64,000 bases of DNA. Origin: Bacillota bacterium. GTDB lineage: Bacteria > Bacillota_I > Bacilli_A > RF39 > UBA660. How positions within the stretch are numbered: the first letter of the stretch is position 1; each line of letters starts with the position of its first letter. Below the pieces are notes generated by a model that saw only the letters and a list, made by a program, of their open reading frames with translations, was not told the DNA's origin and searched no databases. This document shows positions 9,501 to 61,517 of this stretch, piece after piece. The stretch spans positions 774,927 through 838,926 of the forward strand of contig JAEWOE010000006.1 of the NCBI GenBank assembly GCA_023460995.1. Direction: 5' to 3'. A program made the translations under genes and the position numbers.

Positions 9501-9504
9501 AAAA

Positions 9505-9735
9505 GTGATACAATTAGTCATAAGGCAATGACTGAGACACGATTTATTTAAGAGTATCAAAGCAAACTAGGGATGATGGGAGCCTAGTATACAAATAAGT
9601 AAATTACTACTCATGAGCTGAACTCGAAAGAGATTTCCGGTAATACCGTTATCATAAATTAAGCTACAAGGTAGGATGGTACCGCGTTTATACGCTCCTT
9701 ACATATATAATTTTATATGTATGGAGTTTTTTTGT
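9505..9735 (+). promoter_or_regulatory. T-box riboswitch leader with terminator/antiterminator
   Basis: AGAGA box (gaaagagatttcc); T-box sequence GGATGGTACCGCG at ~9672..9686; terminator hairpin gctccttacatatat/atatgtatggag plus T7 at ~9693..9733; sits upstream of a thrS operon. Confidence 0.65.
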
Positions 9736-9752: not shown

Positions 9753-10241
9753 ATGCAACTAAAATCGATATCGCTTAATAAGTTTTTAAAATTATATCTA
9801 GGAATTGAAAACGAAGTATTAAAAAAGATGACACACAACGATGTGAAAATTTTATTGCCAGATCTATGTAGATGCTCATTTGAGTATGCTTATGAGAACT
9901 GTGAAATGATCCTAAAAGGTGATATTATTATTGTTTTTGATGCTAAAGGAATGATTGTTCCATATTTAAAACCAGATAAAAAAATGCAATATAATGTTGG
10001 ACTAATTTATGCTAATGAGACAAAAAGAGTTGGTAAAATAACCACCGACAAAGAGAATATAAAACTAAAGGAAATGTCTAATTATGAACTCAAATTATTA
10101 TTAAATGTTTCTAAAAATGGTTACGCTATTTCTAATAGTGCTAGAAAAGAACTTGAAGAAAGAGGTAAAATTAATTCAAAACAAAAAGTTAAAAAAAGAA
10201 TATGTAATAATTATTATTTAAGAAATTGTGAGGAGGAATAA
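9753..10241 (+). CDS. Hypothetical 162-aa protein encoded between the T-box leader and thrS
   Basis: Strong AGGAGG RBS; its stop overlaps the thrS RBS (GAGGAGG); no recognisable TGS fold. Confidence 0.5.
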   Translation: MQLKSISLNKFLKLYLGIENEVLKKMTHNDVKILLPDLCRCSFEYAYENCEMILKGDIIIVFDAKGMIVPYLKPDKKMQYNVGLIYANETKRVGKITTDKENIKLKEMSNYELKLLLNVSKNGYAISNSARKELEERGKINSKQKVKKRICNNYYLRNCEEE

Positions 10242-10243
10242 AA

Positions 10244-22656: not shown

Positions 22657-22756
22657 AATTTTTATGTTGCAAATAACGACAAAATTTAGTATTATTATCC
22701 TAGAAAGAACTAATACAGAATAATAAATAAACTTGCTAAATAATATGGAGGTTAAA
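22657..22756 (+). promoter_or_regulatory. Conserved promoter plus 5'UTR cassette, copy 3
   Basis: See 15728..15817. Confidence 0.6.
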
Positions 22757-23854
22757 ATGAAGAAAAAGGGGTTTACCCTAATTGAACTATTAGCAGTAAT
22801 TTTAATATTAGGCATAATTGCTCTAATTGCGATACCGGTAGTAAATAAAATAGTTAAGGAAAGTAAAAGGTCGTCATTTGAAACAAGTGCAAGAAATATA
22901 ATATCCGTTGCCGAGGATGAGTGTCAGATACAGTCATTAAAAGGTGAGACAGTTAATAACACTTATTCAATTAATAATGGGGAAATATTCCCATCATTAG
23001 ATATTAAGGGAAAGTTACCAACTAGTGGTTTAATTACATTAGATTCTGAATGTAAAGCTTCATTAGGAATGACAAATAGTACATTTACTGCTACTATGCC
23101 TAGTAACTCTAGGGAATTAACTATCATAGATGGAACTTATGATGTATATTCAAATGGAACAGCTGTATATTTTAATCCTGTATCAGGAAATACTTGTTCA
23201 TCAGGTGAAGCAGTAAGTACTCCAGGTACATACTCTGGATGCATGAAATGGTATGCTTTTGGCGATAGTAAAATTAGTGATACGGTTAATTTAATACTGG
23301 ATCACAATACAACAACTGGAGCTGTGTCTCCATGGAATTCAAGTGGTAGTAATTTGATTGGTCCAAAAGAAATATTAGTAAAACTTAAAGAAACTACAGC
23401 AAGTTGGACGGGAGTTCCATTAAGATATGATAGTTATACAGCAAAGTATATACCAACAAATTATAAAATAGATTATAGTACATATAGAGCAAGACTAATA
23501 ACCGCTACTGAAATAGCTAGAATAATAGGGAATAATACATTTGTAGATTCAGCTTTACCACATGCTTCTTGGTTTTATTTTGATAGTAATAATCAAATAC
23601 AAACAGTTTCATCCCAAGGTGGGAGTGCTTATAAATGGTTATTTGATTATTTAAGTGGTTGCACAAGCTACGGTTGTAATATCGCAAACGCAAGCTGTAA
23701 TGGTTACTGGACAGCTTCAGCAACAGGAAGTGAAGATTATTATAAATGGGGTGCTTGGTATGTTAATGGACAAGGTACTTTAAATTATGGTAATGTTGTT
23801 ATTCCTGTTATGGGAGTTAGACCAGTCATCACAATTTTAAAATCTGAACTATAG
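22757..23854 (+). CDS. Modular pilin-lectin paralogue (prepilin N-terminus plus DUF1566-like C-terminus), more diverged and AT-rich throughout
   Basis: MKKKGFTLIELLAVILILGIIALIAIP; C-terminal ARLITATEIARI...YWTASATG...GVRPVITIL. Confidence 0.75.
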   Translation: MKKKGFTLIELLAVILILGIIALIAIPVVNKIVKESKRSSFETSARNIISVAEDECQIQSLKGETVNNTYSINNGEIFPSLDIKGKLPTSGLITLDSECKASLGMTNSTFTATMPSNSRELTIIDGTYDVYSNGTAVYFNPVSGNTCSSGEAVSTPGTYSGCMKWYAFGDSKISDTVNLILDHNTTTGAVSPWNSSGSNLIGPKEILVKLKETTASWTGVPLRYDSYTAKYIPTNYKIDYSTYRARLITATEIARIIGNNTFVDSALPHASWFYFDSNNQIQTVSSQGGSAYKWLFDYLSGCTSYGCNIANASCNGYWTASATGSEDYYKWGAWYVNGQGTLNYGNVVIPVMGVRPVITILKSEL

Positions 23855-30521: not shown

Positions 30522-31064
30522 ATGGCTTCATATAAGGAAATTGTTACTAAAGCAATTATAGGGAAAGGCAAAAAGTTTTTCAAAAATAACTATAGTATAG
30601 AGGCAAATGGTCCTACAAATGTTTTAGGTTGCTGGGTTATAAATCATAAATTTAAAGGATATAAAAGTGGCGACAAAGTAGGTGTAGATGGGTCTTTTGA
30701 TGTAAATATATGGTATAGCTATGATAATGATTCTAAAACAGCTGTAATAAATAAAAACATTAAGTATAATGATTTATTTAATGTTAAAGTTAGAGAAGAT
30801 GCAGATCTATCAGGTGATACCGAAATAATAGTTAGAACATTAAAACAACCATCTTGTTCTAGTGTAAATATTAATAATGGTATAATAAGTTTTGATATTG
30901 AAAAAGAACTTGGAGTAGAAATTGTTGGCGAAACTAAGATGAAAATATCTATTGAAGAAGATGAAGAACCATGGGAAGAAATACTAGATGATGTAGATGA
31001 AAATATTGAAAAAGAAATAGATGAAAGTGTAGATCCAGAATATTTAGAAAAAAAGGATAAATAA
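30522..31064 (+). CDS. cotE: Outer spore coat morphogenetic protein CotE
   Basis: MASYKEIVTKAIIGKGKKF...GCWVINHKF...NIWYSY...acidic C-terminus, colinear with B. subtilis CotE (MSEYREIITKAVVAKGRKF...GGWIINHKY...NVWYSY). Confidence 0.8.
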   Translation: MASYKEIVTKAIIGKGKKFFKNNYSIEANGPTNVLGCWVINHKFKGYKSGDKVGVDGSFDVNIWYSYDNDSKTAVINKNIKYNDLFNVKVREDADLSGDTEIIVRTLKQPSCSSVNINNGIISFDIEKELGVEIVGETKMKISIEEDEEPWEEILDDVDENIEKEIDESVDPEYLEKKDK

Positions 31065-46468: not shown

Positions 46469-46614
46469 TTTTAATTATCTTTTTTTAATTTTTAAATATA
46501 TATTTTTAAATAAAATAAATAATTTTACATATAATGAGCACAATAAAATTGAAATTATACGTTTACATCAATAAATTTTTATAATAAAATTTACCAATGG
46601 ATAGGATGGCAAAT

Positions 46615-49488
46615 ATGAGAAAGAAGTATTTTAAGGGGTTTACATTAATAGAACTTTTAGCAGTTATTTTAATACTTGGAATAATTGCTTTAATTGCGGT
46701 ACCAGTAATTTCAAGAATGATTAAGGAAAGTAAAAGAGGTGCTTTTGAAACATCCGTAAATAATATAGTGGATGTATTAGAAAATACTTGTAATATACAA
46801 ACAATGAATAACGAAGCAGTAACTTCAAAGTATATTTTTGCCAATGGTGAAATATCACCAACAATAGATATAAAAGGTAGTTTACCAAAAGATGGTACAG
46901 CTACTGTTGATTTAAACTGTAAAGTTGCTGCAAATTTAACTAATGGAAATTTCACAGCAATAAAAACTATAGCAGATGATAGCATAGCTGTGGTAGATGG
47001 AAATACATTAGAGCAACCTGTTGTATTATTTGATACAAACGGTAATTCAAAGTATTCTAAATCAGCTAATATAAAGATCACTGTAAGTGATGAGAGTGGT
47101 CTTGATGAAAGTAGTTTAAAATATTTGTGGAATATAACAACTAATATACCAGACGAAGCAAGTATTACTAATACATTTACAAATAATGATATTATAAGTT
47201 CACCAAGTGATGCAAATGGTGAATACTATTTATGGATATTAGCTAAAGATACTAGTGGTAATACAGCAATAACAAGAACAAGTGTATTTTATTTAGATAA
47301 TACAAGTCCCGTTATAAATTTAAATGGCAGTAATCCTGCTACTATTAATTTAGATGATACTTATATTGATGAAGGTGCTTCGGCAACTGACAACATTGAT
47401 GAAAGTATATCTATAGTAACAACAGGTACAGTTAATCCTAGTACTGTTGGAACATATAATATGACTTATAGTGCTACTGATACGGCTGGAAATACAGCAA
47501 GTGTTACACGTCAAATAAATGTTATTGATACTATTAAACCAACTATAGTATTTGGAACAAATGGTAATAACACATATGCTAAAATGAGAAATACGACAGT
47601 AACAGTTAGTGATAATGGAGTAATAGATACCAGTAGTTTAAAATACTTATGGAATACAAGTACAAGTAATCCAGATGAAGTTTCATTTAACACAACATTT
47701 ACTAATGGAAATACAATAACTACTCCAAATAGTTTGACAGGTGGTTATTATTTATGGATATTAGCTAAAGATAGTAGTGGTAATGTATCTATATCAAGAA
47801 CTGATGTTTTTAATTTAGATAATCAAATTCCAGTAATAACATTAAATGGCAGTAGTTCTGTATCAGTGAATGTAGGAGCTTCTTATACAGATGCAGGAGC
47901 AACTGCTACTGACAATATAGATGGAAGCATTCCTGTAACAACTACAGGCACTGTAAATCCTAATAGTGTTGGAACATATACAATTACTTATAATGCTACA
48001 GACACTGCTGGTAATAATGCAGTTTCAGTAACAAGAACAATTAATGTTATAGATGTTAGTGCACCAGTTATTACGATGTTAGGAAGTAATCCAGTAAGCA
48101 TTAATATTGGTAGTAGTTATACAGATGCAGGAGCTACAGCACTAGATGATGTTGATGGTAATGTAACTAGTAAAATAACAACAACAAGTACAATAAATGT
48201 TAATGCTTTAGGAAGTTATACTCTAACATATAGAGTGACAGATGTAGCAGGAAATACAGCTACAGCAATTAGAACTGTTAATGTTATAGATACTGTTTTA
48301 CCAAATGTAACATTTGGAACAAATGGTAACAGTACATATGCAAAAACAAGAAGTTCTGTTGTTACTTTAAGTGACAACGTTGCTATAAATGGAAGTAGTT
48401 TAAAATATCTATGGAGTACTAGTACAAGTACACCAAGTGAAGCATCATTTACTACTTCATTTACTAATGGCGGAACTATTAATAGTCCAGCAGGAGCAAC
48501 TGGTATTTATTACTTATGGATATTAGGAAAAGATACTAGTGGAAATACAAGAATTACAGGAAGCAATGCTTTCTATTTAGACAATACTGTTCCAGTATAT
48601 AGTAGTTATGCGATTACAAATGTAACTAGTAGTGGATATGATGTATATATATATGGAGTAAGCGATGCTCATATAGGAATAAATAAAGTACAATTTCCAA
48701 CATGGACTGACTATAATGGTGGAGATGATATGCAACCAAGCTGGGAAACTAATGCAGCGGCTAGTGGAACAAATCTTGGAAGTGGAACTTGGTATTATAG
48801 AGTAAATGTTAGTGCTCACAATAATGAATCAGGAGTATATAATACCCATGTATACATTTACGATAGTGCCGGTAATTCAACAGCTTTTGCAGCTTCACAA
48901 ACAACAGTACCACCAAGTGTATACTATTTAGTTGATGTGGTTAATGTTGGAGATTTTATAAGTTATACAGGAAATAATGGCTGTACAAATTGTGGTGGTC
49001 AAAGTGTAAGTTGTTATGGCGGTTATGCTAATACTTATAGTGGCTGGAGAGTTATTTCAAAAAGCGGAAGTGGTTCAACAGGTACAGTTTCAATAGTAGC
49101 CGCAGGAACTACAGAATGTATTGGTTCAGATGGTGGAACTAATGGAGCAGTATTTAATGCTTTAGCAGGTAAGTATTTAAATACAACTTATGCGGCAAGT
49201 GCTAGAAGTATTAATTGTAATGATGCTTTACCATACTCAGCAGCAGCATGTACAAACTATACAACTTATGTAGCTGATTCAATGATACAGCCAGGTGGAT
49301 TTTACTATTTTGCAACACCATACTCAGGAAGCACATGGGTATACTGGGCAATAGTAGAATCAGGTAGATTTAATACTAATGGTGGTTATACATTTGGTTT
49401 AAGACCTATAATTAACTTTAAATCAGGTGTAACAAAAACAGGAGGTAGTGGGACTAACGCAACACCATATACAATATCTATACAGTAG
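46615..49488 (+). CDS. Giant modular pilin: prepilin N-terminus plus alternating conserved-module/DUF5011 Ig-like repeats plus Cys-rich C-terminal domain (963 aa)
   Basis: KGFTLIELLAVILILGIIALIAVP; DUF5011 units (LNGS.P..I..G..Y.D.GATA.DN.DG.I...TTGTVN...VGTY..TY.ATD.AGN); three copies of a second ~95-aa module (FGTNGN.TYAK...SLKYLWN.ST..P.E..F...FTN...YYLWILAKD.SGN). Confidence 0.8.
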   Translation: MRKKYFKGFTLIELLAVILILGIIALIAVPVISRMIKESKRGAFETSVNNIVDVLENTCNIQTMNNEAVTSKYIFANGEISPTIDIKGSLPKDGTATVDLNCKVAANLTNGNFTAIKTIADDSIAVVDGNTLEQPVVLFDTNGNSKYSKSANIKITVSDESGLDESSLKYLWNITTNIPDEASITNTFTNNDIISSPSDANGEYYLWILAKDTSGNTAITRTSVFYLDNTSPVINLNGSNPATINLDDTYIDEGASATDNIDESISIVTTGTVNPSTVGTYNMTYSATDTAGNTASVTRQINVIDTIKPTIVFGTNGNNTYAKMRNTTVTVSDNGVIDTSSLKYLWNTSTSNPDEVSFNTTFTNGNTITTPNSLTGGYYLWILAKDSSGNVSISRTDVFNLDNQIPVITLNGSSSVSVNVGASYTDAGATATDNIDGSIPVTTTGTVNPNSVGTYTITYNATDTAGNNAVSVTRTINVIDVSAPVITMLGSNPVSINIGSSYTDAGATALDDVDGNVTSKITTTSTINVNALGSYTLTYRVTDVAGNTATAIRTVNVIDTVLPNVTFGTNGNSTYAKTRSSVVTLSDNVAINGSSLKYLWSTSTSTPSEASFTTSFTNGGTINSPAGATGIYYLWILGKDTSGNTRITGSNAFYLDNTVPVYSSYAITNVTSSGYDVYIYGVSDAHIGINKVQFPTWTDYNGGDDMQPSWETNAAASGTNLGSGTWYYRVNVSAHNNESGVYNTHVYIYDSAGNSTAFAASQTTVPPSVYYLVDVVNVGDFISYTGNNGCTNCGGQSVSCYGGYANTYSGWRVISKSGSGSTGTVSIVAAGTTECIGSDGGTNGAVFNALAGKYLNTTYAASARSINCNDALPYSAAACTNYTTYVADSMIQPGGFYYFATPYSGSTWVYWAIVESGRFNTNGGYTFGLRPIINFKSGVTKTGGSGTNATPYTISIQ

Positions 49489-49530
49489 AAATTAAATTAA
49501 ATATTATTTAATTTATATATATTTTAAACC

Positions 49531-49561
49531 AGTGCAAAAGGCACTGGTTTTTTATTAATTC
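49531..49561 (+). terminator. Rho-independent terminator (CCAGTGC-aaaag-GCACTGG plus T-run)
   Basis: Perfect 7-bp stem plus T6. Confidence 0.75.
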
Positions 49562-49659
49562 ATTAAGAATAATAACTAAAAAATTATTTTGTAATATGTA
49601 ATTCAAATTAACCATTTTTTGTGTTATAATAGAACAATATTTTTAAAGGTGTGATATAA

Positions 49660-50049
49660 ATGGAATTTACTGAAGACGATAAGAAAAAAATAAAAATTGC
49701 TTCTATTATTATAGGTATATCTATTATTATAAGTATTGTTTCACTATTTGTTGATAATAATGGTAGTAGTAAGATGAACAATATAGCTAAAGAACTTGGT
49801 GAAAATTATTATAAAAGTAGCTTATATGATACATTTAAAACAAATGGAACAAGCTTACTTAGTATTTTTAAAGATGACGGATATAAGGTTAATTTACAAA
49901 CTTTGCTTGAAGATAATAAAGATTATGTTTCTTATTTTGTTAGTGATGATAAGATATGTGACTTAGAAAATAGTTATATAATTATCTATCCAAAGAAACC
50001 TTATAAAGAGGGTAATTATAAAGTTAAAACTTATTTAGATTGCGAGTAG
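49660..50049 (+). CDS. Small N-terminally membrane-anchored protein, paralogue of 50879..51373
   Basis: TM IASIIIGISIIISIVSLF; shared C-terminal Y(I/V)IIYPK.PY motif and Cys pair. Confidence 0.5.
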   Translation: MEFTEDDKKKIKIASIIIGISIIISIVSLFVDNNGSSKMNNIAKELGENYYKSSLYDTFKTNGTSLLSIFKDDGYKVNLQTLLEDNKDYVSYFVSDDKICDLENSYIIIYPKKPYKEGNYKVKTYLDCE

Positions 50050-50054
50050 ATAAT

Positions 50055-50795
50055 ATGAAAAATAAAGTATATATATATGGTTTTATATTGTTTATGTTAT
50101 TTATTGGAATAAATAGTGTAAGGGCTGCATCTTGTGATAAATATGGCTGTGCTTCATGTATTTATAAAATTAGTAATTATGATGTTAAGTATGATATTAC
50201 TAGTAATGGTACTGACATAACTGTTGATTTTGATACACAAAAAACAGGTGATATAAAAGGAGATTATAAGTTTGCTAATAATTTAGAAAGTGCTTCTTTT
50301 AAAAGTGGTGATGAAATAGTTTGTCCTACTAATATATATGTCGTATATGGAATGAGTGGTACTAAAATAACAACTAAATTATATAGTGAAAATAAAGAAA
50401 ATAGCATTAAAGCAGTTTTATCTGAAACTTCAACAGATAATAATAAAACAATAACTGGTGGAGTTAGTAAAAACACTAACACTAATGGTACAAGTAATAA
50501 TGATAATCAAGAAAGATGTTCTATCTTTTCTAGCGATTTTATAGAATTTATGCAACTAATGTTAGACTATATTAGAATAGCAGGTCTGGTCCTAACAGTT
50601 GTACTTAGTATAATGGATTATACTAAGACAATCTTCGGTAATGATGACAAAAGTAATGAAAAAGCTAACAAACGTTTTACAACTAGGCTAATAGTATTAG
50701 CGCTATTATTTTTGATACCATCAGTAATTAACTTTGTTTTAAATTTGTTTAATATTCAAGGTTCTGGTGATAATGGAACATGTGGCATACACTAA
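50055..50795 (+). CDS. Secreted protein with Cys-rich N-terminus and conserved C-terminal double-TM domain (VirB2/TrbC-like topology), paralogue of 51373..53079
   Basis: Signal peptide; C-terminal ~90 aa L.DYIRIAG..L.VVL.I.DY.K.IFG.DDKS..KANK.F.TRLI..ALLFLIP.V.NFVL.LFNI.G.G..GTCGI(H/K) is shared with the 568-aa paralogue. Confidence 0.55.
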   Translation: MKNKVYIYGFILFMLFIGINSVRAASCDKYGCASCIYKISNYDVKYDITSNGTDITVDFDTQKTGDIKGDYKFANNLESASFKSGDEIVCPTNIYVVYGMSGTKITTKLYSENKENSIKAVLSETSTDNNKTITGGVSKNTNTNGTSNNDNQERCSIFSSDFIEFMQLMLDYIRIAGLVLTVVLSIMDYTKTIFGNDDKSNEKANKRFTTRLIVLALLFLIPSVINFVLNLFNIQGSGDNGTCGIH

Positions 50796-50878
50796 AAAAG
50801 AAAAGATAATGTAAACTATCTTTTTTTTGTTATTTTATTATGCTATAATTTAGTTAGTAAAATAGTGAGGTAGATTAT

Positions 50879-51373
50879 ATGAGAGATTTTTATGAGGCAA
50901 ATAAAGGTGCCTTAAAAACAGCAATTATAATGATTATACTAACACTTGTTATTTTAGTAATAACAAGCGTAATAGATAACTTTAGAAATGCAACAACGCC
51001 TAAGAAAGTTTTAGATGCTCTTGCAAAAAGTTATTATGAAGAAACTTTTCATCCGACTGTGGTAGAAAATAATTCAACTAGTTTTGCAACAGTATTAGCT
51101 AAATATGAAAAAGATGGTATAAAGATGAGTATTAAGAACTTTATGACTCTTTATAAAGATATAGACTTTGATATATTCAACAAAGGAAAGTACGCTTCTT
51201 GTGATTTAGATCTGACATATGTAATAATTTATCCTAAATCACCATACGGAGTAGAAGACTATACTTTAAAAGAAGAAGTTTACTGTAATGTAGGCAGTGT
51301 GGTTGAAGAAGATGGTAAGAAAGATACAAATCCAACAGAAACAACACCAAGTGAAGGTAAAGGTGAAAAATAA
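50879..51373 (+). CDS. Small membrane-anchored protein, paralogue of 49660..50049
   Basis: See paralogue. Confidence 0.5.
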   Translation: MRDFYEANKGALKTAIIMIILTLVILVITSVIDNFRNATTPKKVLDALAKSYYEETFHPTVVENNSTSFATVLAKYEKDGIKMSIKNFMTLYKDIDFDIFNKGKYASCDLDLTYVIIYPKSPYGVEDYTLKEEVYCNVGSVVEEDGKKDTNPTETTPSEGKGEK

Positions 51374-53079
51374 TGAATAAAAATAATATAAAAATATCAT
51401 TTTTGTTTTTTGGATTACTATTTATATTAATACCTGGCAAAGCTTTAGCAGCTGATGATAAGATTTTAATGTATCTTGACTGCTCTTATAATATAAGTTA
51501 TGGTGCTGATAATATTAAAAGTAGTAATGTAAGTATTTACTCAAGTGATTTGCATATTGCTTATACTGAAATTTTAGATTATGACGGTAATACTTATAAA
51601 GTGAAAGTTACTGACGCGAGTGGTAGTTTTTATAATAATGTAAATGAGAATTTCAACGATAAATTTACTCCAAGTATTAGGGAAACTGATCAAACAAGAT
51701 CAACTTTCACTTCAGCCTATGCTAAAAATGATAATAGTTGTCCTAAATTTATGACGTTAGAACAATATAGTGGAAGCAAATACACAGTTTTATTTTCTAA
51801 CGAATTAAATGATACTTGCTCAGGAACTCCGGGTACTCAATGTAAAATGATATATAATTATTCTAAAACCAATTATCAAGTTTATATAAGTCCAAAAGAA
51901 GATGTATGGTCTTATTATACTGGCGAAAATAAAGATAGTATATGTGATAAACTAAATATAGATTTATCAGTTTCTGCAGGAAAGAAAATTCAAATTTTAG
52001 CAACATACGCAAAAGATAGTAAATATGAGGAATACACAAATTGGACAGCTCCTAAAAATGTTGATACTGTTTGGTTTGAAGATATTGCAAATTTAGCTAG
52101 AAATAAAACAGTTAAAACGTTAGCATTTGATCCTGATACAGATAGTTTTGCTGGTACAACAGATGTTAGATTTGCAGCTGATTCTGATTCACTTTCCTTT
52201 GATAGTTATTGCAAAATGCCAAAACCTGCATTTACTGCAAAAAAAACATGTTCAACATATGATGACATAAAAGCAACAATTAGTAGTAAAATGAATAATG
52301 CCTTTGCAGCCTCAAAAAGTATTGATGATGTGGCAGCAAAATATTTAAGTGCTAACCCTCAAAATGGTAGTTATAGTGCTAAATCGTATTCAACTGAAAA
52401 GGATGCTACTAAACTTGAGAAAATAGGAACAGAAATAGATACAGCTTTAAAATCTTCAACATTTATAAATGTATCAACAGAGTTTTTAAATTACTTAACA
52501 AGTTTGTCAACTGATGGTACATTATGTCAAGAAGCAAAAGAAAAGGTTTTAGCTATGATTGATACGTATACTGATTATAATACTAATAGGGGAGAAGTTA
52601 TACAAAAGTTAAAAGAAACTCTTGGTAATATTCAATCTAGATTAGAAGCTATGAAAGAAACAGAAAAAGCAGCAGCTTTTGATGAGTATATTGATAATGC
52701 TGCAGCAATGGAAGCAGAGATAAAGACAGTTTCAGTTCAAGCGAGAAATAGTTACTTAACTGGTAATGACTTTAAAATTGGCGCTATTACAGGTGCTACA
52801 TGTAACATAATTTCCGCTGACTTACAAAAGTTTTTACAAACTATTATTGATTATATTAGAATTGCTGGTATAACACTTGCTGTTGTATTAGGAATACTTG
52901 ATTATATAAAAGTAATATTTGGTAGTGATGATAAGTCAATGGCAAAAGCCAATAAAAATTTTGCAACAAGATTAATCGCAGTTGCATTGTTATTCTTAAT
53001 ACCAGCAGTTTTAAATTTTGTTTTGGGGCTATTTAATATTCTTGGAACAGGATCAGCAGGAACTTGTGGTATAAAATAA
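51373..53079 (+). CDS. Secreted 568-aa protein with the same C-terminal double-TM domain as 50055..50795
   Basis: Signal peptide FLFFGLLFILIPGKALAADD; conserved C-terminus. Confidence 0.55.
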   Translation: MNKNNIKISFLFFGLLFILIPGKALAADDKILMYLDCSYNISYGADNIKSSNVSIYSSDLHIAYTEILDYDGNTYKVKVTDASGSFYNNVNENFNDKFTPSIRETDQTRSTFTSAYAKNDNSCPKFMTLEQYSGSKYTVLFSNELNDTCSGTPGTQCKMIYNYSKTNYQVYISPKEDVWSYYTGENKDSICDKLNIDLSVSAGKKIQILATYAKDSKYEEYTNWTAPKNVDTVWFEDIANLARNKTVKTLAFDPDTDSFAGTTDVRFAADSDSLSFDSYCKMPKPAFTAKKTCSTYDDIKATISSKMNNAFAASKSIDDVAAKYLSANPQNGSYSAKSYSTEKDATKLEKIGTEIDTALKSSTFINVSTEFLNYLTSLSTDGTLCQEAKEKVLAMIDTYTDYNTNRGEVIQKLKETLGNIQSRLEAMKETEKAAAFDEYIDNAAAMEAEIKTVSVQARNSYLTGNDFKIGAITGATCNIISADLQKFLQTIIDYIRIAGITLAVVLGILDYIKVIFGSDDKSMAKANKNFATRLIAVALLFLIPAVLNFVLGLFNILGTGSAGTCGIK

Positions 53080-53154
53080 ACTAAAAGTTTAACTTTTAGT
53101 TTTTTTTACTTAATTATAATACTAACTATTAAGTATAATATAATAGGTGATAAA

Positions 53155-53751
53155 ATGAAGGTTTTAAAAAATTATAATGAAGTATTAACACAAGGATATA
53201 ATGCTGTTAGTCATTATGGTATAGATGTTGTAGGTAATAACAATAATGTACATGTTTTAGATTATATTACATCTTATGAGGCAGGAGTAATAGAAGATAT
53301 AAGAACAAATGCTACTGGGTTTGAAGATAATGGTAGTTATGGTAATTATTTAGTAATAAATCATGAGAACGGTTATAAAACAAGGTATGCTCATCTTGCT
53401 TATAATACAATAGGGGTTTCTAAAGGAGATAGAGTAACAAAAGGTCAAGTTTTAGGTTATATGGGTGCAACAGGTTATGCTTTTGGAGGACATCTACATT
53501 TTGAATTAATAAAAGACGGTACTGCAATAGATCCAACTGATTATATATTTGGTAATTCTACTATTATTCCAATACCAGAAGATAATGATGATGGCGAAAA
53601 TAATGGTGAAGATAATGGTAATGATAACGAAGAAAATAATAATGAAGAGAATAATAAAGATGAGCCCAAACTAATATTTACTTGCTTAGTCGAGGATGAT
53701 TATTATTTACATTTAAATGTAGGTAATAAACTTTATTTTTCAAAGGACTAA
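53155..53751 (+). CDS. M23-family (LytM-like) metallopeptidase without a signal peptide
   Basis: HYGID (HxxxD) and GGHLHFE (HxH) motifs; acidic D/E/N-rich linker. Confidence 0.7.
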   Translation: MKVLKNYNEVLTQGYNAVSHYGIDVVGNNNNVHVLDYITSYEAGVIEDIRTNATGFEDNGSYGNYLVINHENGYKTRYAHLAYNTIGVSKGDRVTKGQVLGYMGATGYAFGGHLHFELIKDGTAIDPTDYIFGNSTIIPIPEDNDDGENNGEDNGNDNEENNNEENNKDEPKLIFTCLVEDDYYLHLNVGNKLYFSKD

Positions 53752-53847: not shown

Positions 53848-54972
53848 ATGATTTATTTAGATTATTCAGCAAGTACTCCGGTTAATAAAGAAGTTCTTGA
53901 TAGTTTTAGTAAAGCTTGTTTAGATTTTCCAGGAAACTCTAATTCTCTTCATACGCTTGGAGTAAAAGCAAATGATTTAGTAGAAATGGCTACTAAACAA
54001 ATCGCTGATATTTTAAAAGTAAGTACAAAAGAAATTATATATACTAGTGGATCTAGTGAATCAAACAATTTAGCTATAAAGGGCATTTGTAATAAATATA
54101 AAAATAGAGGAAAACATATTATAACAACACAATATGAACATTCTTCTGTATATGGTCCGATTGGCTATCTTCAAACGCAAGGTTATGAAGTAGATTTTGT
54201 AAATTCTAATGAAGATGGAACAGTTGATCTAAAGCATTTAAAATCGCTTATGAGAGACGATACCATACTTGTTAGTGTCAATGCAATAAATAGTGAAATT
54301 GGTATTATTCAGCCTATAAATGAGATAGGTGAAGTTGTTCACGAGTACTCTAAATGCTTTTATCATGTTGATATTACCCAAGCAGTTGGTAAAATAAACA
54401 TAGATTTATCTAATATTGATTTAGCATCTTTTTCAGCCCATAAGTTTTTTGGACTAAAAGGAATTGGTGTTTTAATTAAAAAAGATAAGATAGTTTTAGA
54501 TCCTCTTATCCATGGTGGTAAAAGCACGACTATATTTAGAAGTGGTACGCCAGCTCATCCATTAATAGTATCTATTTCTAAGGCTTTAAGAATAGCAGTA
54601 GAAGATATTGATGTTAAGTATAATTACGTTACTGAGTTAAATAATACCATAAAAAATGGTCTTATGAAATACTCTGATGTATATGTAAATAGTAACGATA
54701 AATGTTTACCTCATGTATTAAATATTAGTGTAGTAGGAATAAAACCAGAAACTTTCTTACATGCTCTAGAAAAATATGAAGTATACATATCTACTCAAAC
54801 AGCGTGTTCTTCTGAAAAGAATCTATCTCAAAGTGTCTTAGTACTTACTAATGATGAAAATAGAGCAAAGTCAAGCTTAAGAATAAGCTTATCTTACATA
54901 ACTACTAAAGCAGAAGTTTCTAATTTCTTAGAAATATTTGATAAATGTTATAAGGAACTAAAATTAAAATGA
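53848..54972 (+). CDS. Cysteine desulfurase (class V aminotransferase, NifS/IscS-like)
   Basis: PLP-lysine region SFSAHKFFGLKGIG; catalytic Cys-loop TQTACSSE. Confidence 0.8.
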   Translation: MIYLDYSASTPVNKEVLDSFSKACLDFPGNSNSLHTLGVKANDLVEMATKQIADILKVSTKEIIYTSGSSESNNLAIKGICNKYKNRGKHIITTQYEHSSVYGPIGYLQTQGYEVDFVNSNEDGTVDLKHLKSLMRDDTILVSVNAINSEIGIIQPINEIGEVVHEYSKCFYHVDITQAVGKINIDLSNIDLASFSAHKFFGLKGIGVLIKKDKIVLDPLIHGGKSTTIFRSGTPAHPLIVSISKALRIAVEDIDVKYNYVTELNNTIKNGLMKYSDVYVNSNDKCLPHVLNISVVGIKPETFLHALEKYEVYISTQTACSSEKNLSQSVLVLTNDENRAKSSLRISLSYITTKAEVSNFLEIFDKCYKELKLK

Positions 54973-55586
54973 TGAAAATAATGAGTCCTATAATAGGAGA
55001 ACTTGAAGAAAAAGAATTAGAGATTACAGAACAAAAAATAAGTGGTATTTTTAACAATGAGGTTGTTAAAACGTTAAAATATCGTTTTTTAGAATTTAAT
55101 GAGTGTATTTTTAATAAATTAACGATTAATAATTTAAATATGGCTAAAACTACATTTGTAGATGTTAAATTTATTAATTGTGATTTATCAAATACAATAT
55201 TTGAATCTTCGACATTTGTACGTGTTATTTTTGAAGAATGTAAGTTAATTGGTACAGATTTAAGTAGTTCATCTTTTAAAGATGTACAGTTTAATAACTG
55301 TAAAATGAATTATTCTAATTTTTCTGATAGTAAACTTCAAAATATTATATTTAAGGATATAGATGCTGGTAATAGTAGTTTTATAAATGTTAAATTTAAA
55401 GATGTTATTTTTGATACATGCAAACTTGAAGAAATAGAATTTCTAAATACAAATTTAAGTAATATAGATTTTTCAAATTCTATTATAGATGGCATTGCGG
55501 TTAATGTAGCATTATTAAAAGGTTGCGTGGTAAATACATACCAAGCAGTTGAATTGTCAAGGTTACTTGGCTTAAAAATAAAATAG
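54969..55586 (+). CDS. Pentapeptide-repeat protein
   Basis: Tandem A(D/N)LxX pentapeptides across most of the protein. Confidence 0.8.
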   Translation: MMKIMSPIIGELEEKELEITEQKISGIFNNEVVKTLKYRFLEFNECIFNKLTINNLNMAKTTFVDVKFINCDLSNTIFESSTFVRVIFEECKLIGTDLSSSSFKDVQFNNCKMNYSNFSDSKLQNIIFKDIDAGNSSFINVKFKDVIFDTCKLEEIEFLNTNLSNIDFSNSIIDGIAVNVALLKGCVVNTYQAVELSRLLGLKIK

Positions 55587-55595
55587 GTGGTATAT

Positions 55596-55862
55596 ATGAA
55601 TATAGTGAAAATAGGGGCGATGTGGTGCCCAGGGTGTCTAGTTATGCATAAAGTATGGACACAAATAGAAAAAGAATATCCAGAATTAGAAATAACAACA
55701 TATGATTTGGATATGGATAGTGAAGAAGTAGAAAAATATGATGTTGGAACTACACTTCCTGTAATAATTTTTTATAAAGAAAATGTTGAATATAAAAGAT
55801 TAATTGGAGAAAAAAAATATGAAGATATAAATAAAATTATTTTAGAAATGAGGAATAATTAA
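55596..55862 (+). CDS. Small thioredoxin-like protein (CPGC active site)
   Basis: GAMWCPGCLVM. Confidence 0.7.
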   Translation: MNIVKIGAMWCPGCLVMHKVWTQIEKEYPELEITTYDLDMDSEEVEKYDVGTTLPVIIFYKENVEYKRLIGEKKYEDINKIILEMRNN

Positions 55863-57082
55863 TGAAAAAGTTTCTTAAAGCATTATTTCTATCTTTTATA
55901 TTATTTATATTTCCAACATTAGTTAACGCTTCTACTTTTGATTATAAGGATCAGGTTTATGATATAGTTGAAGAAAAAGAAAGTACTAAAGTAACTGTTT
56001 ATCTTTTTCATAGTAGTTCTTGTGTACATTGCAAAGCTGAAAATGCTTTCCTAAATGAACTTGCGAGTGAGTATGGAGATAAAATTGATATAAAAAGATA
56101 TGAAGTTACTTCTAGTGCAATAAATAGTAACTATATGCAGTTAGTAAAAGATAGATTTGGTTCAACGTCAACAGGCGTACCTTTTACTGTAATTGGTCAA
56201 AAATATTATGTTGGATATAGTGAAAGCATTGGTAAAACAATGAAAAATACTATTGATTCATATATTAAAAGTATGAATAATGGTGCTTCTGATGATGATT
56301 CGGATGATAATGAAGAAGAAGTAATAGAAGAAGATAATAAAATTAATTTACCACTACTAGGTGATGTAGATGCTAAACAAGTATCACTTCCACTTGTTGC
56401 AGTGATATTAGGAACCATTGATGGTTTTAATCCATGTGCCATGTGGATTTTGCTATTCTTGATAAACATGTTATTTAATATGAAAGATCGTAAAAAAATG
56501 TGGATACTTGGTTTTACTTTCTTATTTACTTCAGCATTTGTTTATTTTTTAGCAATGCTAGGACTTTCAGTAGTAATAGGTATGACAGCCGTAGTTTGGG
56601 TGAGAACATTAATTGCTTTTGTAGCAATTTTAGGTGGTATTGTTAACTTAAATAGTTATTTGAAAACACCTAAAGATGGATGTCATGTTGTAGATGAAAA
56701 AAAACGCAAAAAGTATTTTACAAAAATAAAGAAGTTTACTTTAGAACAAAACATGTTATTATCATTAATTGGTGTTATAACATTAGCGGCTAGTGTTAAC
56801 TTAGTAGAACTTGCTTGTTCAGCAGGCTTTCCTACTATATTTATTTCTATGTTAGATTTAAATGGTATAAATGGTTTTGCTAGTATTCTTTACATATTAC
56901 TTTATATAGTATTCTTCCTGATAGACGACATAGTGATATTTATAATAGCTATGACAACATTTAAAATTAGTGGTATTACTACTAAGTATAATAGATTATC
57001 ACATTTAATAGGTGGTATTATTATGATTATAATAGGATTACTACTTGTACTTAAACCAGAATGGATTATGCTTAACTTTTAA
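55862..57082 (+). CDS. Fusion of extracytoplasmic thioredoxin-like domain (CVHC) and CcdA/DsbD-like transmembrane electron transfer domain
   Basis: Signal/TM plus SSSCVHCKAE; membrane domain with NPCAMW and ELACSAGFP conserved Cys motifs. Confidence 0.65.
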   Translation: MKKFLKALFLSFILFIFPTLVNASTFDYKDQVYDIVEEKESTKVTVYLFHSSSCVHCKAENAFLNELASEYGDKIDIKRYEVTSSAINSNYMQLVKDRFGSTSTGVPFTVIGQKYYVGYSESIGKTMKNTIDSYIKSMNNGASDDDSDDNEEEVIEEDNKINLPLLGDVDAKQVSLPLVAVILGTIDGFNPCAMWILLFLINMLFNMKDRKKMWILGFTFLFTSAFVYFLAMLGLSVVIGMTAVVWVRTLIAFVAILGGIVNLNSYLKTPKDGCHVVDEKKRKKYFTKIKKFTLEQNMLLSLIGVITLAASVNLVELACSAGFPTIFISMLDLNGINGFASILYILLYIVFFLIDDIVIFIIAMTTFKISGITTKYNRLSHLIGGIIMIIIGLLLVLKPEWIMLNF

Positions 57083-58398: not shown

Positions 58399-58794
58399 AT
58401 GAAAAGTAAAGGGTTCACGTTAGTCGAAATTTTAGCAGTAATTACAATTATTGGTATACTTGCTTTAATAGCGGTTCCAACAGTAGATTCAATTATAAAA
58501 AGAGGTAAAGAAGACGCATATAATGTTCAGAAACAAGCAGTATTAGCAGGCTTAAAGAACTGGGCAGCTTCTAAAACTTTAACCCTTCCAACAGTAAACG
58601 GTGAAACCTTAACAGCAACTATAGGTGATTTAAAAGTAGCAGGTTTTTTAGAAGTGGAAACAAGAAATCCTATGAACGATTTATGTTTTAGTAATGACAC
58701 TGTCCTTGTAGTAACAAGAAAGAATAACAATTACACATACACATTCCAAGATGAAGACAATATTGATTTTACCGAAACTTGTGAGGTAGAATAA
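58399..58794 (+). CDS. Short (131 aa) type IV minor pilin/pseudopilin-like protein
   Basis: MKSKGFTLVEILAVITIIGILALIAVP; small globular head; ATGA overlap with the next pilin gene. Confidence 0.8.
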   Translation: MKSKGFTLVEILAVITIIGILALIAVPTVDSIIKRGKEDAYNVQKQAVLAGLKNWAASKTLTLPTVNGETLTATIGDLKVAGFLEVETRNPMNDLCFSNDTVLVVTRKNNNYTYTFQDEDNIDFTETCEVE

Positions 58795-61517
58795 TGAGAA
58801 AAGGTTTTACATTAGTCGAATTACTTGGTGTTGTAGTAATTATGGGTGTTATTGCGTTAATAGCTGTTCCCGCTGTTGATAGTGTAGTTAAAAAGAACAA
58901 AGAAAAAGCATATGATTTTACTAAAAGTACTATTATAGCAGCTTCTAAAAACTGGCTGTTAGATAATAAATCTTTACTTGATGATGGTGAAACAGTCAAT
59001 GTTACTCTTGCTGATTTAAAAGAACAAGGTTACTTGGATTTTGATATTAAAAATCCTTCAAGTGGCAAATGTTTAGATAATACAATGGAGGTCTCAATAA
59101 GTAGAAATGAGAAGAAATATTCATACGCTATTATTGGAAATGAACTTGTAGATGGTAGTGATTCTGATTGCGAGACTACAGGTAGGGCGCCTTCAATCTA
59201 TCTATTAGGTTCAAATCCTCTTAATGTTGAAATAAATACACCTTTTGTTGATCCAGGCGCAAAGGCTACAGATACAGATGGTATAGATATCACAAATAAA
59301 ATTGTTAAACCAGATGTAATTGATACAAGTACACTTGCTAGTAATATAAAATATAAGTATACAATTTTATCTGATGGTATTATAAAAACTGTAACTAGAA
59401 AAGTAAATGTAATTGATACTACAAAACCAGTAATTATTGGAGTCGCTGATACATCATTAAATACAAGTGATACTACTTTTAATATTATGGATGGTGTAAG
59501 TGCTTCAGATAATAGCGGTGAGACAATTACTATAAAGACAAAATCGAATTTAATGTTAGGGGTTAAGGGAGAATATACGGTTACTTACATAGCAACTGAT
59601 TCTTCAGGTAATACCACAAGTAAAACTAGAAAAATAAAGGTTGAAAAACCAGCTTATACTCTCATGGTTAGGTCACCAGGTAACTATCTATGGAATAGTA
59701 CATACCAAAACAAAATTGAATCAATTGATTTTGTTGATTATGTGGATACAACAGGATCTACTATTTCATGGGATTTATCTGCAGCGAAAAACGGAACAAT
59801 AACAGGATGGCTTATTCCAGATACGAATAATCCATCATATTATAAAATGTACATAGGTAGTACTGGATATATATATGCTAATCCCGATTCATCTCATTGG
59901 TTTCAAGGGTTTGAAACTCTTTATTCAATAAATTTAGATAATTTTAATACATCAAATGTGACAAACATGAGTTATATGTTTTACGCTATGGAAGTTGTAA
60001 CTAGTCTAGATTTAAGCGACTTTGTCACATCAAATGTAACAAATATGGAATGTATGTTTGCTGATACTTTTGGTTTAGAAAATTTGGATTTGAGTAGTTT
60101 TGATACATCAAAGGTAACAAGTATGAGCTTTATGTTTTGGAATGATAATTTCTACGGGTCAGTGAGTAATCTAATTAGTTTAGATTTGAGAAGCTTTGAC
60201 ACATCAAATGTGACATCAGCGTTTAGAATGTTTTCTGGTTTAACTAAATTGACTAGTTTAGATTTGAGTAGTTTTGATACATCAAAAATAACTAACATGG
60301 GTTCTATGTTTTCCTCTATGACAAGTCTAAAGTATTTAAATGTGAGTAATTTTGACACATCAAATGTCAATCATATGAGTGGTATGTTTTCTGGTGCAAG
60401 TGGTCTAACTAGTTTGAATTTAAGCAATTTTAACACATCAAATGTAACAGACATGAGTGGTATGTTTTCTGGTGCAAGTGGTCTAACTAGTTTGAATTTA
60501 AGCAATTTTGATACATCAAAAGTAACTAGTATGTATGGTATGTTTTCTGGTGCAAGTAGTCTAACTAGTTTAAATATAAGCAGTTTTGATACATCAAAAG
60601 TAACTAGTATGGGGGAGATGTTTAGTTCTGCAAGCAGTCTAACTAATTTGAACTTAAGCAATTTTGATACATCAAGCGTAACTAGTATGAGTGGTATGTT
60701 TCGTTCTGCAAGTAAGCTAACAAGTTTAGATTTAAGTAGTTTTGATACATCAAACGTATCTAGTATGAGTGGTATGTTTAGTGATGCAAGTAGTTTAATA
60801 AGCTTAGATTTAAGTAGTTTTGACACATCAAAAGTTACCAGTATGTCTTTTATGTTTAGTTATGCAAACAAATTAGTAAACCTAAATGTAAGTAATTTTA
60901 ATACTTCAAATGTAGTAGATATGCGAGGCATGTTTCGTCATACATCAAGTTTAGTTGATTTAAATGTAAGTAACTTTAATACATCAAAAGTAAACGATAT
61001 GAGTGAAATGTTTTATTATTCTAGCAGTATAACTAGTCTAAACTTAAGCAACTTTAATACATCAAGCGTAACTAGTATGAGTAGTATGTTTAGCTCTGCA
61101 AGCAATTTAACAAGTTTAGATTTAAGTAGTTTTAATACATCTAATGTTACTTATATGTATGAAATGTTCAGTTTTACAACTAAATTAACAAGTTTAAACT
61201 TAAGTAGTTTTAACACTTCAAATGTTACCAGCATGAGATCAATGTTTTCTAGAACAAATAGTTTAGTAAGTTTAAATATAGTTAATTTTGATACATCAAA
61301 AGTAACTGATATGAGTAACATGTTTAGTTATTCAACTAGTTTAACTAATCTTGATTTAAGTAATTTTAATACAACAAAAGTAACAAATATGAATTATATG
61401 TTCAATTATTCTAATAATTTAACTACTATTTATGTAGGAAGCAATTGGACAACTACTGGTGCGACAACTGTTAACATGTTCTATGGTTGTGGCACATCAA
61501 CTGTAACACCAAAATAA
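58794..61517 (+). CDS. Giant modular pilin: prepilin N-terminus plus pilin head plus two DUF5011 Ig-like domains plus ~20 DUF285/BspA-type leucine-rich repeats (907 aa)
   Basis: MRKGFTLVELLGVVVIMGVIALIAVP; ~26-aa repeats (L.LS.FDTSNVT.M..MF...S.L.SLDLS) from ~59930 to ~61430. Confidence 0.8.
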   Translation: MRKGFTLVELLGVVVIMGVIALIAVPAVDSVVKKNKEKAYDFTKSTIIAASKNWLLDNKSLLDDGETVNVTLADLKEQGYLDFDIKNPSSGKCLDNTMEVSISRNEKKYSYAIIGNELVDGSDSDCETTGRAPSIYLLGSNPLNVEINTPFVDPGAKATDTDGIDITNKIVKPDVIDTSTLASNIKYKYTILSDGIIKTVTRKVNVIDTTKPVIIGVADTSLNTSDTTFNIMDGVSASDNSGETITIKTKSNLMLGVKGEYTVTYIATDSSGNTTSKTRKIKVEKPAYTLMVRSPGNYLWNSTYQNKIESIDFVDYVDTTGSTISWDLSAAKNGTITGWLIPDTNNPSYYKMYIGSTGYIYANPDSSHWFQGFETLYSINLDNFNTSNVTNMSYMFYAMEVVTSLDLSDFVTSNVTNMECMFADTFGLENLDLSSFDTSKVTSMSFMFWNDNFYGSVSNLISLDLRSFDTSNVTSAFRMFSGLTKLTSLDLSSFDTSKITNMGSMFSSMTSLKYLNVSNFDTSNVNHMSGMFSGASGLTSLNLSNFNTSNVTDMSGMFSGASGLTSLNLSNFDTSKVTSMYGMFSGASSLTSLNISSFDTSKVTSMGEMFSSASSLTNLNLSNFDTSSVTSMSGMFRSASKLTSLDLSSFDTSNVSSMSGMFSDASSLISLDLSSFDTSKVTSMSFMFSYANKLVNLNVSNFNTSNVVDMRGMFRHTSSLVDLNVSNFNTSKVNDMSEMFYYSSSITSLNLSNFNTSSVTSMSSMFSSASNLTSLDLSSFNTSNVTYMYEMFSFTTKLTSLNLSSFNTSNVTSMRSMFSRTNSLVSLNIVNFDTSKVTDMSNMFSYSTSLTNLDLSNFNTTKVTNMNYMFNYSNNLTTIYVGSNWTTTGATTVNMFYGCGTSTVTPK
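59930..61430 (+). repeat. Intragenic 78-bp tandem repeat array (DUF285 LRR units), including a perfect 57-bp duplication at 60375..60431 and 60453..60509
   Basis: Direct reading of repeated atgagtggtatgttttctggtgcaagtggtctaactagtttgaatttaagcaatttt. Confidence 0.85.

Follow-up and report, generated by a model that had tools for sequence, protein, structure and literature searches.

Five genes on the same strand (+) fill positions 49660-53751 of a 64-kb stretch of DNA from a Bacillota bacterium (64,000 nucleotides, positions 774,927 to 838,926 of contig JAEWOE010000006.1, assembly GCA_023460995.1; hereafter the window), and all five open reading frames (ORFs) were confirmed at the coordinates given below. 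The first four constitute two copies of a module that pairs a small bitopic membrane protein, here called the partner, with a secreted protein that ends in a hydrophobic two-helix hairpin; the fifth encodes an M23 (LytM-type) metallopeptidase. Profile comparison and gene neighbourhood show that the hairpin is a divergent PF18895 (T4SS_pilin) domain homologous to VirB2-like pilins, and identify the module as a derivative of a type IV secretion system (T4SS) of the Gram-positive (monoderm) type. The reading we favour, which in our judgement has about an even chance of being correct, is that the operon is a detached, duplicated piece of a T4SS cluster that has been kept as a domesticated, T4SS-independent cell-surface system.

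Scored against PF18895, hairpin proteins 1 and 2 reach 17.5 bits (E 0.0043) and 18.8 bits (E 0.0018), respectively, where the Pfam gathering threshold is 26.6 bits. The closest database relatives are 22 stand-alone proteins of 121-136 aa from uncultured Bacilli, which consist of a signal peptide and the hairpin, and 17 of them carry a precomputed PF18895 annotation. Amongst 115 members of the hairpin family, 70 match PF18895 (best E 3.6e-8), while their ectodomains match no Pfam family. The family profile scores hairpin domain 1 at 124 bits, and an exhaustive profile search returned at least 5,119 representatives of 50%-identity clusters at E ≤ 1e-3, including 819 at E ≤ 1e-10; among the 150 matches listed, the hairpin ends at most about 20 residues before the C-terminus, is preceded by 0 to about 650 aa, and belongs to proteins that reach up to 740 aa through their N-terminal regions. 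A profile built from short pilins linked to T4SS genes matches both window proteins at about 1e-6 (E 9e-7 for protein 1), and the family hidden Markov model (HMM) in turn matches PF18895-annotated pilins beside virB4 at the related locus L020 (1.3e-6). Alignment to a single PF18895 pilin with hhalign gave E 4e-4 at a probability of 35%. Two pilin-like models from Mycoplasma integrative and conjugative elements, NF045849 (Mbov_0395) and NF045848 (MMCAP2_0566), match at 13.9-15.1 bits (E 0.013-0.024, with hairpin domain 2 at E 0.013 to NF045849), which is below the NCBIfam cut-offs of 40 and 90 bits, so that these matches serve as leads only. No match to PF04956 (TrbC/VirB2) was found for the window proteins at E ≤ 0.1.

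We compared the module with relative loci and contigs designated L001-L022. On L021 and L022, a short pilin gene (4e-19) is followed by a member of the small-partner family (~1e-32), a gene for a hairpin protein of ~580 aa (~1e-35) and a VirB6-like gene (1e-58 to 1e-65); on L021, a TraC-like gene (6e-67) and VirB4 (7e-211) come next, and the cluster of L018 starts in the same way, with Tad-like genes in front. This gene order implies that the partner and the long hairpin protein are a regular part of a monoderm T4SS cluster, next to virB6. On L007, a 159-aa relative (P0171) and a 109-aa paralogue are encoded beside TrbL_4/VirB6, a TraC-like gene, VirB4, a SpoIID-domain protein that is likely a wall hydrolase, and VirD4. 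The VirB4 clusters of L019 and L020 contain PF18895 pilins of 102-103 aa, and on L011 a 433-aa family member occurs together with VirD4 and a hydrolase that contains M23. Family homologues scoring 96-111 bits adjoin virB6 and virB4 on L007, L008, L021 and L022. The hairpin proteins at T4SS-linked loci fall into two classes, one short and lacking a signal peptide, the other with a signal peptide and an N-terminal extension, and those of the window belong to the second. The first-pass annotation had compared the hairpin with VirB2/TrbC pilins on topology and held that no known family seemed to fit; the likeness extends to homology, and the second statement is superseded by the assignment to PF18895, with the two Mycoplasma models as weak additional matches.

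Two further features of the T4SS-linked contigs were noted. Tad-type pilus genes precede the T4SS clusters of the hairpin family on L007 (1-9525), L018 (207-3271) and L022 (2-2046), and encode a Flp-like pilin, two TadE-like proteins, a CpaF-type ATPase and RcpC, together with a sortase in L007, so that two different pilus systems are encoded side by side. The interval 3-4084 of L011 encodes the hydrolase, which combines M23 with a second domain, two small transmembrane proteins and the VirD4 homologue (E 1e-186 to VirD4 of L007), the last lacking a precomputed Pfam match; rhodanese and RmuC genes come next, and the gene for the 433-aa hairpin protein starts about 1.4 kb downstream of the VirD4 gene.

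Hairpin protein 1 (50055..50795, +, 246 aa) and hairpin protein 2 (51373..53079, +, 568 aa) are alike only in their last 92 aa (65% identity, E 7e-39), which form the PF18895-like hairpin domains at 50517..50792 (+, residues 155-246) and 52801..53076 (+, residues 477-568). In protein 1, a signal peptide (residues 1-24, VRA/AS) leads into a Cys-rich ectodomain (CDKYGCASCIY ... VCP) and then the hairpin. The signal peptide of protein 2 (ALA/AD) is followed by a variable Cys-rich head (residues ~27-320), a conserved region (~320-476) with coiled-coil or helical-bundle-like matches, which in the PDB are generic coiled-coil only, and the hairpin. When profiles of the two ectodomain classes were compared, nothing aligned beyond the signal peptide and a C-x-Y motif; the earlier claims that these proteins are paralogous at their C-termini alone, and that their N-terminal ectodomains are unrelated, therefore hold.

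Hairpin domain 1 runs from Cys155 through helix 1, a charged loop (GNDDKSNEKANKRFTTR), helix 2 and a Gly-rich tail to Cys243, and domain 2 is flanked by Cys477 and Cys565. Across the family, Cys occupies the two hairpin-flanking alignment columns in 111 and 114 of 115 sequences, and each operon protein has an even number of Cys residues, every one of them in predicted extracytoplasmic parts. A single-sequence AlphaFold2 (AF2) model of the 246-aa protein contains helices at residues 160-194 and 199-236 (predicted local distance difference test, pLDDT, 66-79 per 10-residue block), in agreement with the two hydrophobic helices described before, and is poor elsewhere. Sequence searches of the PDB, run with profiles of the hairpin and of the 568-aa class, gave generic helical or coiled-coil matches only, and a Foldseek search of the PDB with the low-confidence 246-aa model found nothing significant, only generic helical hairpins. 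The N-terminal signal peptide and the K/R-rich loop predict an orientation with both ends outside, in which the window hairpins would conform to the definition of VirB2-like pilins as proteins with two transmembrane segments and a charged loop. Small size (about 50-150 aa), which also belongs to this definition, is not shared by the window proteins, which have 246 and 568 aa and carry the hairpin as their last ~90 aa.

The partners (partner 1, 49660..50049, +, 129 aa; partner 2, 50879..51373, +, 164 aa) are paralogues, as had been recognised from their common motif (BLASTP E 9e-15, 27% identity), and share a single transmembrane helix, the motif SY(I/V)IIYPKxPYxxxxY and two conserved Cys residues. 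Partner 1 has its transmembrane helix at residues 5-27, an alpha/beta ectodomain at 35-125, conserved Cys100 and Cys128 and the motif version SYIIIYPKKPY; partner 2 ends in an acidic or Pro/Thr-rich tail. The AF2 model of partner 1, made from a 42-sequence alignment, shows the transmembrane helix, a linker and the alpha/beta ectodomain with a pLDDT of 79.6 overall and of 82-94 per 10-residue block in the ectodomain. Comparison of the partner model with the PDB by Foldseek gave no significant fold match, the best being the monoderm type 4 (T4) pilin 8pfb_C (E 0.29, TM-score 0.15, not significant). We considered whether the partners might be type IV (prepilin-type) pilins and rejected this, as they have no N_methyl (PF07963) match. 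The partner family is narrow (43 clusters) and was not found beside the hairpin genes of L007, L009 or L011, which indicates that pairing with a partner is not universal in the hairpin family.

Profiles for VirB4, VirB6, VirD4, TraC-like and VirB3-like proteins found no match in the 64-kb window, bearing out the earlier remark on VirB4 and VirD4, and the short pilin is absent from it too. Nor was any T4SS gene detected within 10 kb at the window-clade, L001-clade or L016 loci. The window lies on a metagenome contig of 959,426 bp; a concatenated VirB4+VirD4 query, which recovered VirB4 relatives down to 22% identity, returned none from this contig, a null that is suggestive and not conclusive since the query has low sensitivity for distant homologues. 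The neighbours of the operon in the window are housekeeping genes (CTP synthase, threonyl-tRNA synthetase, RNase R, DnaB/DnaI-like, UppS, CdsA, RseP and ribosomal protein S16), and its GC content is that of its surroundings. The operon stands upstream of the same cysteine desulfurase-pentapeptide-thioredoxin-membrane-redox block in L001-L006, L014, L015 and L017, amongst which the partner proteins are as little as ~30% identical. The duplicated two-gene module is present in at least two lineages, the window clade (window, L013 and L014) and the L001 clade, a recurrence which argues that the arrangement is not due to chance, and related partner/hairpin pairs are found on L016-L018 and L021-L022. 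A profile scan of genome contigs yielded four loci only, all from uncultured Bacillota or Bacilli metagenome-assembled genomes, and a metagenome scan yielded one short, uninformative contig. In tblastn searches, the window hairpin domain found nothing in PLSDB plasmids or in a phage collection, and the T4SS-linked relative P0171 found nothing in PLSDB plasmids.

Module 1 is 70-90% identical in amino acid sequence to its counterparts in L013 and L014, with ratios of nonsynonymous to synonymous substitution rates (dN/dS) of 0.09-0.22 (0.11-0.20 for partner 1, 0.09-0.22 for hairpin protein 1). Such values indicate strong purifying selection on module 1 and, when set beside the neighbouring cysteine desulfurase (84% identity to L014, dN/dS 0.09), imply that the genes are functional. 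The corresponding figures for module 2 are 42-57% identity and dN/dS 0.36-0.48, with partner 2 evolving fast (42-47% identity to its orthologues, dN/dS 0.36-0.46), and for the M23 gene dN/dS is 0.14. Hairpin protein 2 is a mosaic in comparison with L013: identity is 17-37% over the first ~320 aa and 70-100% over the other ~280 aa, with the hairpin domain at 99%. The regions of low identity are the head of hairpin protein 2 (51373-52330) and the ectodomain of partner 2 (50990-51373), which diverges along with this head (33-44% to L013, compared with ~90% for module 1). The pattern looks like diversifying selection or cassette exchange, and would fit an exposed variable head that contacts its partner. 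In L001, a 368-aa protein combines a module-1-like N-terminus with a hairpin 80% identical to that of its operon neighbour. The L001 operon (8425-9531 and 10001-10399) has in its module 2 a minimal 132-aa hairpin protein instead of the ~570-aa one, and its two hairpins resemble each other more than they resemble the window hairpins at the corresponding positions. The pattern suggests an exchange of hairpins between operon mates, by gene conversion or domain swapping between modules.

If the operon is a domesticated surface system, its products could work as follows. After Sec export, the hairpin would insert into the membrane with both ends outside and the K/R-rich loop inside, and the conserved Cys residues before helix 1 and near the C-terminus would form a disulfide that staples the two ends. 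In the VirB2 pilin of Agrobacterium and the TrbC pilin of RP4 the ends are joined by a peptide bond, and the predicted staple could be a functional analogue of this head-to-tail cyclisation, which the large N-terminal ectodomain of the window proteins rules out in its literal form. The hairpin would anchor the protein and probably oligomerise it, so as to display the variable head on a helical stalk, and each small partner would associate, on the outer side of the membrane, with the hairpin protein of its own module and serve as assembly chaperone or co-subunit. The likely role would be in surface adhesion or recognition, presumably with no extrusion of a pilus, given that the locus has no gene for a VirB6 platform, a VirB4 motor or a short major pilin. 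The M23 peptidase would be a later, clade-specific neighbour that may open peptidoglycan locally.

Each known system shares some of these features. The PF18895 pilins of monoderm and Patescibacteria T4SSs have the same ~70-90-aa two-helix hairpin with a short charged loop and are connected to it by sequence profile. In contrast to them, the window hairpin forms the C-terminal part of secreted proteins of 246 and 568 aa and has a conserved flanking Cys pair that is missing in the L020 pilins; the window proteins moreover have a dedicated bitopic partner, no virB4 or virB6 nearby and sub-threshold Pfam scores. VirB2 and TrbC have a hairpin with both termini outside and joined, as would be achieved here by the predicted disulfide; unlike them, the window proteins lack a PF04956 match. 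TraQ of the F plasmid is a bitopic chaperone needed for the F-pilin TraA, and resembles the partners in that it is small, crosses the membrane once and serves one hairpin pilin. The partners differ from it in having a folded ectodomain of ~90 aa, with a predicted disulfide, that diverges together with the head of the hairpin protein and has no PDB match, and we do not claim homology. PrgF(B2) of the Enterococcus faecalis plasmid pCF10 likewise has two transmembrane helices with a short charged loop facing the cytoplasm, and its gene adjoins prgH in the way that genes for homologues of the window proteins adjoin virB6. However, PrgF has 75 aa, with neither signal peptide nor ectodomain, and no sequence similarity to the hairpin (hhalign E 0.29), as is expected given that Gram-positive VirB2-like pilins share almost no sequence similarity (10.64898/2025.12.18.695078). 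The VirB5/TrwJ tip adhesins offer a parallel in their variable surface head on a probably helical region and their association with pilins, the counterparts here lying beside virB6 in relatives, and sequence-variable VirB2/VirB5 paralogues are known from Bartonella Trw (reviewed in PMC12857230); they are unlike the window proteins in that no sequence or structural match links the two and that the adhesin-like part is here fused to the pilin hairpin itself.

Several observations weigh against domestication or against the pilin assignment on which it builds. The T4SS-linked contigs have the same GC content (0.28-0.29) as the window and may therefore come from close relatives. The absence of T4SS genes applies to 64 kb, and the remainder of the ~0.96-Mb genome may yet encode a T4SS. 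The hairpin with its charged loop is the most conserved part of these proteins (83-99% among orthologues), which exceeds the need of a simple anchor and is in keeping with a hairpin that still docks on a conserved partner, for instance VirB6. Both hairpins score under the PF18895 gathering threshold, and for neither is a solved pilin detectable, by sequence or by fold. Some of these points favour an alternative in which the proteins are working parts of a T4SS encoded elsewhere, namely ectodomain-bearing minor pilins that dock on the VirB6 pentamer, occupy the tip or surface of a short conjugative or contact pilus and there do the job of a VirB5-type tip adhesin, with the M23 peptidase as a VirB1-like hydrolase. 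It draws support from L021, L022 and L018, where the same pair stands directly upstream of virB6, from the extreme conservation of hairpin and loop, and from L011 with its combination of a 433-aa family member, VirD4 and an M23-containing hydrolase. Conjugation requires PrgF, and no Gram-positive equivalent of VirB5 has been found (10.64898/2025.12.18.695078). Distance from a motor gene has precedent in Patescibacteria, where a non-pilin gene sometimes breaks up an array of VirB2-like pilin genes and where, in ~40% of assemblies carrying arrays, the pilin gene and virB4 are not close together (10.1101/2025.01.22.634366). However, the lack of T4SS genes in the 64 kb and around the window-clade, L001-clade and L016 loci, the failure to recover VirB4 or VirD4 from the 959-kb contig, the absence of a short major-pilin gene from the locus and a chromosomal position that is stable across lineages, unlike that of a mobile element, all speak against it. 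We regard this alternative as tentative and prefer the domesticated, T4SS-independent system to it.

Two other explanations are unlikely. The M23 peptidase lacks an export signal, matches phage endolysin families and is encoded just downstream of membrane hairpin proteins, as it would be in a lysis or autolysis cassette whose holin-like hairpin proteins release a leaderless endopeptidase to the cell wall. We consider this very improbable, since the hairpin proteins have cleavable signal peptides and ectodomains of 130-450 aa and belong to a T4SS pilin family; their sole PHROG match is to a family of unknown function (E 0.014), no phage genes are nearby, the phage collection held no tblastn match to the hairpin domain, and the module occurs without the M23 gene in L001-L003, L015 and L017, quite apart from the promoter that this gene seems to possess. 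There is hardly more to be said for convergence, in which these are generic membrane-anchored secreted proteins that resemble pilins merely by having two hydrophobic helices. The sub-threshold Pfam and NCBIfam matches, the hhalign probability against a single PF18895 pilin, the dissimilarity to PrgF and the generic helical hairpins returned by fold search are what convergence would predict, but gene context is evidence independent of such scores, and the homologues beside virB6 and virB4 on L007, L008, L021 and L022 speak for descent, as do the 70 of 115 relatives that match PF18895 and the fact that the top specific matches are three separate pilin models. A pore or membrane-insertion module, which had also been suggested for the hairpin, found no support.

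Pfam already includes the domain family, and reports of VirB2-like proteins from Gram-positive bacteria date from 2025; what seems new in the literature searched is the fusion to ectodomains, the dedicated partner and the orphan chromosomal operon in ~1-Mb Bacilli. It was generally accepted up to late 2025 that T4SSs of Gram-positive bacteria lack VirB2 and VirB5 (PMC12857230). A preprint of December 2025 then found small VirB2-like proteins to be essential for conjugation and identified no VirB5 equivalent (ter Beek et al., 10.64898/2025.12.18.695078). The Gram-positive pilins were found there with a size filter of 50-150 aa, outside which the window proteins fall, so that a class fused to ectodomains would have been missed. 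The family to which the locus leads is large (at least 5,119 clusters at 50% identity) and seemingly undescribed in the literature searched, and is found both inside T4SS clusters, adjoining virB6, and as an orphan operon in small genomes. A bolder proposal, which we think rather improbable as a whole, is that ectodomain-fused VirB2-like proteins and their partners are the missing VirB5-equivalent tip or adhesin of Gram-positive pili, two copies of which were domesticated by ~1-Mb gut Bacilli as a T4SS-independent recognition system with hypervariable heads. If they are pilus-tip adhesins, a gap in the model of Gram-positive conjugation would be filled and testable targets for recipient recognition provided; if the proteins work alone, a part of a secretion system would have been reused as a surface anchor. 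Were both elements of the proposal true, the case would resemble that of host-dependent Patescibacteria, which require their pilin arrays for life on the host.

The M23 metallopeptidase (53155..53751, +, 198 aa) scores 79.3 bits in Pfam (cut-off 28.7) and has an intact zinc site, H20YGID24 (HxxxD) and H113LH115 (HxH). It contains an acidic Asn/Asp/Glu linker and a 25-aa C-terminal tail, and has no transmembrane segment; the 25 codons between the upstream in-frame stop and its ATG leave no room for a signal peptide, so that the first-pass description of a leaderless enzyme with an acidic linker stands. Its place as a stable part of the module does not, since the gene occurs only in the window, L013 and L014 and is absent from the syntenic loci L001-L003, L015 and L017. 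It follows an AT-rich hairpin (CTAAAAG-TTTAA-CTTTTAG) and T8 run at 53081..53107 (+), noticed by eye between it and hairpin gene 2, and has its own TATAAT and AGGTGA. The hairpin is a possible weak terminator, which the terminator scan missed because it has too few GC pairs, and the M23 gene may have a promoter of its own. We treat it as a clade-specific neighbour rather than as a core part of the module. A role as VirB1-like wall hydrolase of a T4SS was rejected for want of conserved linkage (the five syntenic loci lack the gene) and of a signal peptide or transmembrane segment, while the M23-containing hydrolase near VirD4 and the 433-aa family member in L011 makes a link between M23 and the module possible. 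A sporulation role, for which a SpoIIQ-like M23 protein and the CotE homologue of the window might be invoked, was rejected too, as the protein has no transmembrane segment and retains its catalytic residues, and no SpoIIIA-like genes are nearby.

Upstream of the operon, an intrinsic terminator-like hairpin with T-run at 49526..49550 (+; 10-bp stem, 5 GC pairs) ends the preceding gene, which encodes a prepilin-type surface protein of 963 aa, and appears to mark the 5′ boundary of the operon. A promoter-like site, TTCAAA, 17-nt spacer and TG-n-TATAAT, lies at 49602..49630 (+), ~30 nt before the first gene (a consensus match only), and a ribosome-binding site, AAAGGTG, precedes the ATG at 49660. 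Only 5 nt separate the genes for the 129-aa and 246-aa products, and the stop codon of partner 2 overlaps the ATG of the 568-aa gene by 1 nt, suggesting that partner 2 and hairpin protein 2 are translationally coupled.

The block behind the module (53848-57082 in the window) was found in every relative examined and encodes the cysteine desulfurase, a pentapeptide-repeat protein, a thioredoxin and a 406-aa protein with a secreted thioredoxin-like CxxC domain, a polytopic membrane domain and no Pfam match. The last could be an oxidoreductase that forms the predicted external disulfides of the module, or the block may simply reflect conserved gene order. The gene for the pentapeptide-repeat protein (54969-55586) starts within the end of the cysteine desulfurase gene, and its product matches the anti-phage Hailong effector HalA at 54.7 bits (cut-off 250), probably an effect of the repeats only. 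The prepilin-type N-terminal methylation motif (PF07963) is present in five proteins of the window (2127-4784, 22733-23854, 46597-49488, 58399-58794 and 58794-61517), three of which are large surface proteins of 885-963 aa, two with immunoglobulin-like, GBS_Bsp, DUF285 or leucine-rich repeat domains. Such anchoring of big surface proteins is unusual, and a pilus assembly ATPase is absent from the window. Directly upstream of the 885-aa prepilin-type protein, a 674-aa ORF (4-2028) with many GGI(V/A/I)G repeats has no Pfam or NCBIfam match. Finally, positions 30522-31064 encode a clear homologue of the outer spore coat morphogenetic protein CotE (E 3.8e-48), which, with a main contig of ~0.96 Mb, suggests a spore-former with a very small genome.

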